A stretch of DNA of 64,000 bases from Escherichia coli. GTDB lineage: Bacteria; Pseudomonadota; Gammaproteobacteria; Enterobacterales; Enterobacteriaceae. Shown one piece after another: positions 54,301 to 57,300 of this stretch (positions within the stretch are counted from its first letter, which is position 1; every line of letters starts with the position of its first letter). The stretch lies in the NCBI RefSeq assembly GCF_011045215.1, contig NZ_CP049201.1. One strand, given 5' to 3'. A program made the position numbers.

Positions 54301-57300
54301 TGAGCCCGTTCCTGCGAGCCGAGCAAACACTGGAGGAAGTAGGGGATTGTCTGAACCTGCCTTCCAGTGCAGAAGTTCTGCCGGAGTTAACGCCCTGCGG
54401 CGATGTTGGTCTGGTCAGTGCCTATTTGCAGGCGTTGACCAATGAAGGTGTTGCTTCGGTGTTGGTTATCTCCCACTTACCGTTAGTTGGGTATCTGGTC
54501 GCCGAGTTATGTCCGGGCGAAACGCCGCCTATGTTTACCACCTCGGCCATTGCCAGCGTCACGCTTGATGAAAGCGGAAACGGCACATTCAACTGGCAGA
54601 TGAGCCCGTGTAATCTGAAGATGGCGAAAGCTATCTGATTTGTTTGAAAAAATGCCCGATGTAAGCTGTACATCGGGCATTTGTCTTTTTGCAATAGTAT
54701 AAATTCACTCAAAACCCTTCACGGAGTTGGTATGCTGCGATGATGATTTCATCGCACTCTTTCCTCTGCTTCCCTATTAATTTCTGATGAAATGAGACTA
54801 AGTTGTAATATATTTTTACAAATTATAAAACTAATGGAACAATTAACAGTAAAAAAGAAATGATATTTTTGTGTCTTGATTTAATATTATTTGTGATGCT
54901 TTAATATTATATCTTCAAAAAATACAATTTCAAAATTAATCTAAGATCGTCTTTTTTGTATACATTTCCCATAAATTTTAATTATGTAAAAGATGTTTTC
55001 TAAACATTTTATTTGTTTTTTATAAGTAAACTCTCAAAATTTCACCTTTTTGATTATATGTTAAGTGCTCCTTAATTTACTGTTAAGTAAATATAAATTG
55101 AAACAATAAAGACAAAACATCACCATTCGCCCACACCAAAGAATATCTTCTTATGCGACCTATTTTCTTGTTAGTTAGATCGGATAGCTTATTCAATGGC
55201 TGAGTATAAATAATTGCTATTGACTGAATCAATGTATTGCAATGTTTATATTTTTAATTATTTATGGTTTAAGGACAAATAATGAGTAAGTTTGTAAAAA
55301 CAGCTATTGCTGCAACAATGGTAATGGGTGCGTTCGCTTCTACTTCAACAATCGCCGCTGGCAACAACGGCACAGCTCGTTTTTACGGCACCATTGAAGA
55401 TTCCCCGTGCTCCATCGTTCCTGATGATCACAAACTGGAAGTTGATATGGGTGACATTGGTTCAGGGATCCTGAAAAACAACGGGACTTCTACACCGAAA
55501 GCTTTCCAGATCCATCTGCAAGACTGTGTGTTTGACACCCAGACAACGATGACCACTACCTTCACCGGTAACGCATCTTCTACCAACAGCGGCAATTACT
55601 ACACCATTTACAATACCGATACTGGTGCGGCATTTAACAATGTCAGCCTGGCCATTGGTGACGCTCAGGGAACCTCTTATAAAAGCGGCGCGGGTATCGA
55701 ACAGAAAATCGTAAACGATACGGCGACCAACAAAGGCAAAGCGAAGCAGACGCTGGACTTTAAAGCCTGGCTGGTGGGCGCTGCTGATGCGCCAGATTTA
55801 GGTAATTTTGAAGCCAACACGACCTTCCAGATTACTTATCTCTAAGTGATACCCCCATAGCTTTCGGGCTATGGGGTTTTTAAATGGAATTCGCGCAAAT
55901 TATAATAATTACGGATGGATACGTGTATGCCTGACCATTCTCTTTTCCGACTGCGGGTACTTCCCTGCTGCGTTGCATTGGCAATGTCCGGGAGTTATGT
56001 CAATGCCTGGGCTGAAGATGAAATTCAGTTTGATTCCCGTTTTCTGGAGTTAAAAGGCGACACAAAAATCGATCTGAAGCGATTTTCCAGCCAGGGTTAT
56101 GTCGAGCCTGGGAAATACAATTTACAGGTTCAACTAAATAAACAGCCGCTGACGGAAGAATACGATATTTACTGGTACGCCTCTGAGAACGATGCCAGTA
56201 AAACCTATGCCTGCCTGACGCCTGAACTGGTCGCGCAGTTTGGCTTAAAAGAGGATGTGGCAAAAAACCTGCAATGGATCCACGACGGCAAATGCCTGAA
56301 CCCCGGTCAACTGGAAGGCATTGATATTAAAGCTGACCTGAGTCAGTCAGCGTTAGTCATTTCATTACCCCAGGCTTACCTTGAATATACCGACATCAAC
56401 TGGGATCCCCCTTCACGCTGGGATGACGGTATTTCTGGTTTAATTGCTGACTACAGTATTACCGCTCAGACACGACATGAAGAAAATGGCGGGGATGACA
56501 GCAATGAAATTAGCGGCAACGGGACGGTTGGGGTGAACCTCGGCGCATGGCGTCTGCGAGCCGACTGGCAGACTGATTATTTGCATAGTAAAAGCAATGA
56601 TGACGATGTTATCAACGGTGATGACACGCAAAAAAACTGGGAGTGGAGCCGCTACTACGCCTGGCGAGCCTTACCGTCGCTAAAAGCCAAACTTGGCCTT
56701 GGCGAAGACTACCTGAATTCTGATATTTTCGACGGCTTTAACTACGTGGGTGGCAGTATCAGCACCGACGATCAAATGTTGCCGCCGAATCTGCGCGGCT
56801 ATGCGCCGGATATCTCCGGCGTGGCGCACACCACCGCGAAAGTGACCGTCAGCCAGATGGGCCGCGTGATTTACGAAACTCAGGTCCCGGCGGGGCCGTT
56901 CCGTATCCAGGATCTTGGCGATTCCGTCTCCGGTACGCTGCATATCCGCATTGAAGAGCAGAACGGTCAGGTGCAGGAATATGACATTAACACTGCGTCA
57001 ATGCCGTTCCTGACCCGCCCCGGCCAGGTGCGCTATAAACTGATGATGGGCCGCCCGCAGGAGTGGGGGCACCACGTGGAAGGCGGTTTCTTCTCCGGCG
57101 GCGAAGCTTCCTGGGGGATTGCCAACGGCTGGTCGCTATACGGCGGGGCGCTGGCAGATGAACACTATCAGTCGGCGGCGCTTGGCGTCGGTCGCGATCT
57201 GTCTGTGTTTGGTGCGGTGGCCTTTGATGTCACCCACTCGCATACCCGCCTGGATAAAGAAACTGCCTACGGTAAAGGTTCACTGGACGGTAACTCGTTT

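Follow-up and report, generated by a model that had tools for sequence, protein, structure and literature searches.

In the pap operon of uropathogenic Escherichia coli, the papA mRNA possesses a protective 3' terminator, and this subunit mRNA is stable and abundant relative to the distal genes (PMC5927463). The fimA mRNA stands approximately 8-fold above fimI and approximately 12-fold above fimC (PMC10673952), and the CS6 operon of ETEC possesses a stem-loop in the cssB-cssC intergenic region that exhibits natural allelic variants and whose alteration or deletion affects the output of both transcript and protein (PMC8923064). The Yfc chaperone-usher fimbria of E. coli is cryptic, although associated with the core (PMC3559732), with YfcV handled as its rod subunit (PMC12122975), and stf, the Salmonella counterpart of yfc, has been placed in the pi clade, the prototype of which is Pap (PMC3373541).

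The hairpin described here sits between the major-subunit gene yfcV and the co-oriented assembly genes of an operon with the order V-U-S-R-Q-P-O, all on the + strand. It resembles the papA element in that both operons belong to the same pi fimbrial clade (PMC3373541) and both possess a terminator-like hairpin directly past the rod-subunit gene. However, pap possesses papI and papB upstream, RNase E processing of papBA yields a protected 5' end, and papH lies between papA and the usher gene, whereas yfc in the window (the whole 64-kb stretch of E. coli DNA that was analysed) starts with yfcV and has the usher gene next. The pap element also exhibits no sequence similarity to the yfcV hairpin. 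At the fimA-fimI junction the subunit gene likewise leads the operon, with its promoter serving the genes downstream, but fim belongs to another usher clade and the next gene, fimI, encodes the assembly-terminator subunit rather than an usher. The CS6 element shares with the yfcV hairpin its location between structural-subunit and chaperone/usher genes and the natural variation of its alleles, but its stem is shorter (6-7 bp), its operon is plasmid-borne and of a different clade, and its reported effect is on stability or translation and is not demonstrated termination. The malE-malF element is similar as a stable hairpin at the 3' end of the first and most abundant cistron (PMC5927463), and the hairpin is kept among orthologues without need for a U-run; the malE-malF element is, however, a REP repeat, whereas the yfcV hairpin is single-copy and followed by a terminator-type U-run.

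The yfcV hairpin adds a hitherto uncharacterised case to a well-known class of device; no new principle is involved, and the mechanism is textbook for fimbrial operons. A first-pass annotation of this DNA had called it a classic device of partial termination or processing, which matches the published general explanation for fimbrial clusters (PMC3373541) and the papA, fimA and CS6 precedents. A search of the literature on a yfcV terminator, including the locus tags ECs3222, ECs3221 and Z3596, found no 3'-end, Northern or coverage report for the junction.

The hairpin in the yfcV-yfcU gap

Between 51.8 and 63.5 kb the window encodes, all on the + strand, fadJ, sixA, a StfA-like subunit, an usher, a chaperone, three small subunits, a 289-aa protein and prmB. 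The gene order fadJ-sixA-yfcVUSRQPO is of the E. coli O157:H7 type, and identity to E. coli O157:H7 is 99-100%, where the fimbrial genes are annotated as yfcV, yfcU, yfcS, yfcR, yfcQ, yfcP and yfcO. The open reading frame of yfcV, which encodes the major (rod) subunit of Yfc fimbriae, occupies 55282-55845 (+), its best NCBIfam hits are StfA/SteA major subunits, and it ends in the stop codon TAA (55843-55845), preceded by CTC. The first gene past the hairpin, yfcU, is intact in the window (55927-58566, +) and encodes an outer-membrane usher, the length of which is 879-883 aa. Family matches and the O157 annotation agree for both neighbours, and the first-pass annotation had named them correctly as the major fimbrial subunit gene and the usher gene. 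An in-frame ATG at 55915 was considered as the start of yfcU and rejected, given that it is missing in K-12-type alleles whereas the ATG at 55927 is invariant; the conserved start context of yfcU in the aligned alleles is ACGGATGGATACGTGTATGCC. The chaperone gene yfcS, together with yfcR, yfcQ, yfcP and yfcO, follows at 58589-61707 (+), where the genes are tightly packed with gaps of at most 22 nt or overlaps, and the 81-nt gap between yfcV and yfcU is the sole sizeable intergenic gap of the operon. Upstream, a 14-bp terminator hairpin after sixA, found by the terminator scans at 54650-54682 (+), isolates yfcV from upstream transcription.

Across the site the sequence reads CTC TAA GTGATAC CCCCATAGC T TTCG G GCTATGGGG TTTTT AAATGG. 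The yfcV stop is followed by the 7-nt spacer GUGAUAC (55846-55852, +), the 5' arm of the hairpin, CCCCAUAGC plus U (55853-55862, +), a UUCG loop (55863-55866, +) whose sequence varies among alleles, the 3' arm, G plus GCUAUGGGG (55867-55876, +), and a U5 tract that abuts the stem (55877-55881, +; tail UUUUUAAAU), at which release would be expected if the element is an intrinsic terminator. Both arms are supported by sequence, fold and covariation with each other, and the loop by the fold. The stem consists of nine Watson-Crick pairs (55853-55861 with 55868-55876), six of which are G-C, and a tenth pair, U55862.G55867, closes the UUCG loop, an alternative description being a 6-nt loop UUUCGG. 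A 9-bp GC-rich stem followed by TTTTT at 55853-55881, starting 8 nt after the yfcV stop, had been reported in the first-pass annotation; the coordinates are right, stem and U5 are read directly from the sequence, and with a spacer of 7 nt the hairpin begins at the eighth base.

The 29-mer of the hairpin has a folding energy of -17.2 kcal/mol, compared with -6.8 +/- 2.3 kcal/mol for shuffled sequences (z = -4.54), and none of 200 shuffles folds as well. The hairpin is present in both the MFE and the centroid folds of 66-nt and 201-nt contexts, and an antiterminator or alternative fold was sought in the 201-nt context, where no competing structure was found. After the stem, five consecutive U residues are followed by AAA, and the distal part of the tail is A-rich. 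The reverse strand possesses the same stem but continues with GUAUCAC and has no U-run, and the terminator form is therefore present only in the yfcV sense. The features of an intrinsic terminator, namely a G+C-rich stem-loop and an abutting U-rich tract, are thus found on the transcribed strand 7 nt past the yfcV stop. The U-rich tract of intrinsic terminators is canonically 7-9 nt long, with the proximal U residues mattering most. Given that the U-run has only 5 nt and is followed by AAA, termination efficiency is not predictable.

A lenient terminator scan of 52-64 kb returned 23 sites against 12.9 +/- 4.3 expected, which is not decisive, with the yfcV site second in rank. A strict scan of the whole 64 kb, restricted to perfect stems of 9 bp or more with loops of 3-8 nt and T-rich tails, returned six sites (four + and two - strand), where dinucleotide shuffles give an expectation of 0.03. 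A REP/BIME-type repeat was rejected by blastn of the 53-nt hairpin region against 5,426 E. coli genomes, which gave a single copy in each genome, at one locus in each of 429 genomes. Neither an Rfam family nor a repeat matched the site, and the Rfam search, run over 54-57 kb at E <= 10, returned nothing overlapping 55846-55900.

Pairing and U-run variation among orthologous loci

Subunit-usher gaps were collected from K-12-type, GPEC1185 and RIVM_C037134 E. coli, from species representatives by means of a usher N-terminus profile, and from contigs encoding divergent YfcV proteins. The yfcV gene is highly polymorphic: the alleles of most E. coli genomes exhibit 80-90% DNA identity to that of the window, and protein identity ranges from 40 to 99%. 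It serves as a marker of uropathogenic strains.

In every one of 13 alleles from Escherichia and Pseudocitrobacter all nine core pairs are formed (100%), and pairing over the full 10-pair helix is 95.3%. Compensatory double changes occur in three core pairs: C-G is replaced by U-A in strain E69, where an outer C-G pair is gained as well; U-A is replaced by C-G in three alleles; and G-C is replaced by A-U in two alleles, while a third has a G.U intermediate. One additional stem pair exhibits G.U among the 13 alleles. The covariation score is 0.228, compared with 0.126 +/- 0.020 in column shuffles, none of 500 of which is as high, although the alleles are related and the significance is therefore overstated. 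Two controls are free of this kinship weakness: registers slid by 1-3 columns are only 39-46% paired, and mean pairwise identity is 0.89 for the stem, against 0.34 for the loop, 0.41 for the spacer and 0.53 for the downstream sequence. This pattern indicates that the stem is under selection for pairing while the loop and flanks drift. Because G.U pairs correspond to A-C mismatches on the other strand, the selected structure is placed on the sense-strand RNA. The hairpin, on this strand and in this position, is maintained by selection.

All 19 orthologous yfc/stf loci or alleles compared, which span Escherichia species, Pseudocitrobacter, Citrobacter, Enterobacter, Salmonella and metagenomic relatives, possess a hairpin with a folding energy of -14 kcal/mol or below that begins 5-11 nt past the subunit stop; the spacer keeps to this length range in all orthologues, but its sequence varies. 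Citrobacter sp. FP75 and Enterobacter sp. RIT418 possess different G+C-rich hairpins with U-rich tails in the same place. The stfA-stfC gap of Salmonella contains a perfect 14-bp stem 7 nt past the stop, and a Salmonella-like stem, CCUGCGGC, is present in two metagenomic relatives (L092 and L094). The hairpin as a universal trait of the usher family was rejected: paralogous operons, with ushers approximately 50% identical from Serratia, Yersinia, Photorhabdus and others, mostly have gaps of 40-55 nt without a hairpin. As judged from these gaps, the trait is a property of the clade of yfc/stf orthologues rather than of the usher family as a whole.

The tail that follows the stem is variable. 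Tail scores were calculated with a position weighting for terminator tails that is reportedly that of d'Aubenton-Carafa, and are 4.39 for E69, 3.83 for the window (O157) allele, 2.91 for the B2-like alleles GPEC1185 and RIVM_C037134, 2.33 for K-12, 0.73 for E. albertii and 0.35 for Salmonella. The score of the window allele is among the highest of 17 orthologous alleles, and the sixA terminator in the same window scores 1.82, below the yfcV hairpin. At least four U residues are found among the first five positions after the stem in 10 of 12 Escherichia-type alleles. The U-run is strong in the window, weaker in K-12, and absent in E. albertii and Salmonella-type loci, all of which keep the hairpin. 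By these scores, the hairpin is the constant part of the element and predicted termination strength is lineage-dependent. Given that E. albertii and Salmonella-type loci keep the hairpin without a U-run, termination cannot be the universally conserved function, and the same persistence makes it probable that shielding of the 3' end against exonucleases belongs to the conserved role.

Probable partial termination and mRNA protection, and alternative readings

Anatomy, selection and precedent suggest that the yfcV hairpin is probably an intrinsic terminator of partial efficiency, which would also stabilise the 3' end of the mRNA and shift the yfcV:yfcU mRNA ratio upward; that it terminates, that it does so partially and that it stabilises are each inferred from these three lines. 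Transcription would start at a yfcV promoter in the AT-rich sixA-yfcV spacer, and the stem would form as RNA polymerase passes 55876-55881, where some polymerases would release a monocistronic yfcV mRNA and others would continue into the genes for the usher, the chaperone and the minor subunits. On both terminated and processed transcripts, the hairpin would block 3'-to-5' exonucleases, and the yfcV message would outlast the distal part. Termination and protection together would give a large excess of subunit over assembly machinery, as the pilus rod needs. Since the downstream assembly genes are needed for any fimbria, termination would have to be incomplete or bypassed by a second promoter. 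If it works in this way, the hairpin sets the amount of rod subunit against that of chaperone and usher, and U-run differences among alleles would shift the subunit:machinery ratio between lineages. Such a role would be of use in expressing Yfc or Stf fimbriae and in interpreting RNA-seq of yfc/stf operons.

Expression studies give an indirect hint. In strain CFT073 over-producing TosR, yfcV is up by a log2 of 5.2, and most other genes of this and similar operons are not significant or fall below the read cut-off (PMC5956150); the supplement of that study contains no per-gene yfc values. Under bicyclomycin treatment, yfcV is among the up-regulated fimbrial genes. A search of the K-12 Term-seq supplement returned no yfcV or yfcU entry. 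The yfc operon is silenced by H-NS in laboratory K-12 (PMC3946193), which accounts for its absence from K-12 3'-end maps.

A pure decay barrier would involve near-complete read-through and a downstream RNase E cut, with the hairpin only stopping PNPase and RNase II, such that the yfcV segment outlives the rest, and differential decay of the malE-malF or CFA/I type is the model for it. The hairpins kept without a U-run in E. albertii, Salmonella stfA, L092 and L094 (tail scores 0.35-2.06) are consistent with a barrier, as is the A/U-rich single-stranded stretch after the stem, and protective 3' hairpins are a documented general mechanism (PMC5927463). In the window and in most Escherichia-type alleles, however, a U-run abuts the stem, which is a terminator hallmark and needless for a barrier, and a barrier by itself is quite unlikely; the two functions are, moreover, not mutually exclusive. 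Less likely again is a full terminator that divides the operon into two transcription units, a monocistronic yfcV and a yfcUSRQPO unit with its own promoter at approximately 55879-55906. A putative promoter, TTTAAA-N16-TATAAT, with 10 of 12 consensus matches, does lie just past the hairpin (55879-55906, +), its TATAAT keeps a constant spacing to the yfcU ATG in several divergent alleles, and a K-12 promoter catalogue gives the unit as yfcV alone (PMC3946193), although that listing may only reflect the pseudogene status of yfcU in K-12. Of 14 aligned alleles, 6 have TATAAT and another has TATAAA, but the -10 match is missing in K-12-type, E. whittamii, E69 and L087-type alleles, promoter-like motifs in the region are not in excess (16 against 13.1 +/- 3.6 in shuffles), the conserved block may be merely the yfcU translation-initiation region, and a transcript from this motif would have a leader of only approximately 14 nt. 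Given the position of this motif downstream of the hairpin, read-through is perhaps not the sole route to yfcU expression.

Very improbable is a reading without RNA function, in which the palindrome arose by chance or acts at the DNA level, for instance as the site bound by a dimeric protein or as a recombination boundary by the hypervariable yfcV. The palindrome does lie at the 3' edge of a gene whose products range from 40 to 99% protein identity, but its arms co-vary rather than hold a fixed half-site sequence, the G.U pairs of RIVM_C037134, E. albertii and the tenth pair in the window would become A-C mismatches in a DNA cruciform or on the opposite strand, other genera have unrelated hairpin sequences at this position, and the chance expectation is 0.03 per window. 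Small RNAs from 3' UTRs are common in enterobacteria, and a terminator hairpin at an mRNA end could likewise be that of an Hfq-dependent regulatory RNA from the 3' end of yfcV. This is the least probable of the readings considered, as the 3' UTR before the stem is just 7 nt long and unconserved, the U-run is short, Rfam provides no match, and upstream of the stem there is no conservation beyond coding constraint.

Partial termination combined with 3'-end protection is the preferred reading, and at the level of sequence the first-pass annotation is supported, but its emphasis shifts: guarding of the 3' end, which corresponds to the processing named in that annotation, may be the conserved core function, and termination a lineage-specific addition. 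A bolder and rather unlikely version is that the hairpin is an ancient decay barrier common to the yfc/stf loci of Escherichia, Salmonella, Citrobacter and Enterobacter, and that the U-run is an evolvable, lineage-specific dial of termination. If so, natural alleles would encode different subunit:usher stoichiometries, and strongly terminating alleles such as that of the window might compensate via the TATAAT-containing motif upstream of yfcU. At 5-11 nt past the stop codon, the hairpin would lie within reach of the terminating ribosome.

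Hairpins between subunit and usher genes in related loci

Orthologous hairpins that lack a U-run are present in the Salmonella stfA-stfC locus (L085, 1915-1960), in two metagenomic relatives (L092, 785-825; L094, 1377-1415) and in E. albertii (L010 and L091), and each is equal in strength to, or stronger than, the hairpin that follows yfcV in the window (stem at 55853-55876, U-run at 55877-55881). The Salmonella hairpin possesses a perfect 14-bp stem of -24.8 kcal/mol, and in Salmonella-type loci the sequence 3' of the hairpin is A-rich. These hairpins look like decay barriers rather than terminators.

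The gaps of Citrobacter (L011) and Enterobacter (L012), from subunit-gene stop to usher-gene start, are longer, at 132-137 nt, and contain a second hairpin, AATCCGG...CCGGATT(T), 3' of the first (approximately 2400-2450 and 2405-2455, respectively). This second hairpin could represent either a tandem terminator or the insertion of a REP-like element. The gap is just 14-17 nt in three Photorhabdus operons paralogous to yfc (L038, L044 and L048), where the initial usher codons harbour a hairpin (-14 to -16 kcal/mol) approximately 12-55 nt past the subunit stop. The arrangement resembles that of the protective structures which Dar and Sorek (PMC5927463) described inside downstream coding sequences.

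Promoter-like and terminator motifs flanking yfcV

A sigma-70-like match on the + strand, TTTAAA-N16-TATAAT (55879-55906; 10 of 12 positions), sits immediately 3' of the yfcV hairpin and 21 nt 5' of the yfcU ATG, with its -35 half sharing bases with the end of the U-run. Among 14 aligned alleles, TATAAT is present in six and TATAAA in one further allele, and the K-12, E. whittamii, E69 and L087-type alleles lack TATAAT upstream of yfcU. The motif could be an internal promoter or a piece of the yfcU translation-initiation region.

Within the AT-rich sixA-yfcV spacer, the - strand carries the region's best promoter-like match (54906-54933; TTGAAA-N16-TATAAT, 11 of 12 positions), which is directed away from yfcV. 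An H-NS-associated RpoD promoter for yfcV has been assigned to this spacer in a K-12 catalogue (PMC3946193). The terminator after sixA (54650-54682) is a 14-bp hairpin with A/T runs on both sides. It is likewise scored as a terminator when read on the - strand (54678 to 54654, tail ATTTTTTC), suggesting that it may be bidirectional.

Variation in yfcV and yfcU

The rod subunit gene yfcV (55282-55845) is strongly polymorphic across E. coli: a match was obtained in 4151 genomes, of which only 337 carry an allele with at least 99% identity to that of the window, 3707 show 80-90% DNA identity, and an additional allele class aligns over only about one quarter of the query. Protein relatives extend down to approximately 40% identity. 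This pattern resembles the outcome of diversifying selection on, or allelic replacement of, the exposed rod subunit. The usher gene yfcU (55927-58566) is intact in the O157-type window; the annotation of the K-12-like record (L002, 2227 onward) gives it as a pseudogene interrupted by an internal stop.

Other hairpins in the window

Three further hairpins whose stems are perfect over at least 9 bp and whose tails are T-rich lie at 8-32 and 20747-20768 on the + strand and at 46518-46543 on both strands. The last has a T-run on each strand, as a bidirectional terminator would.
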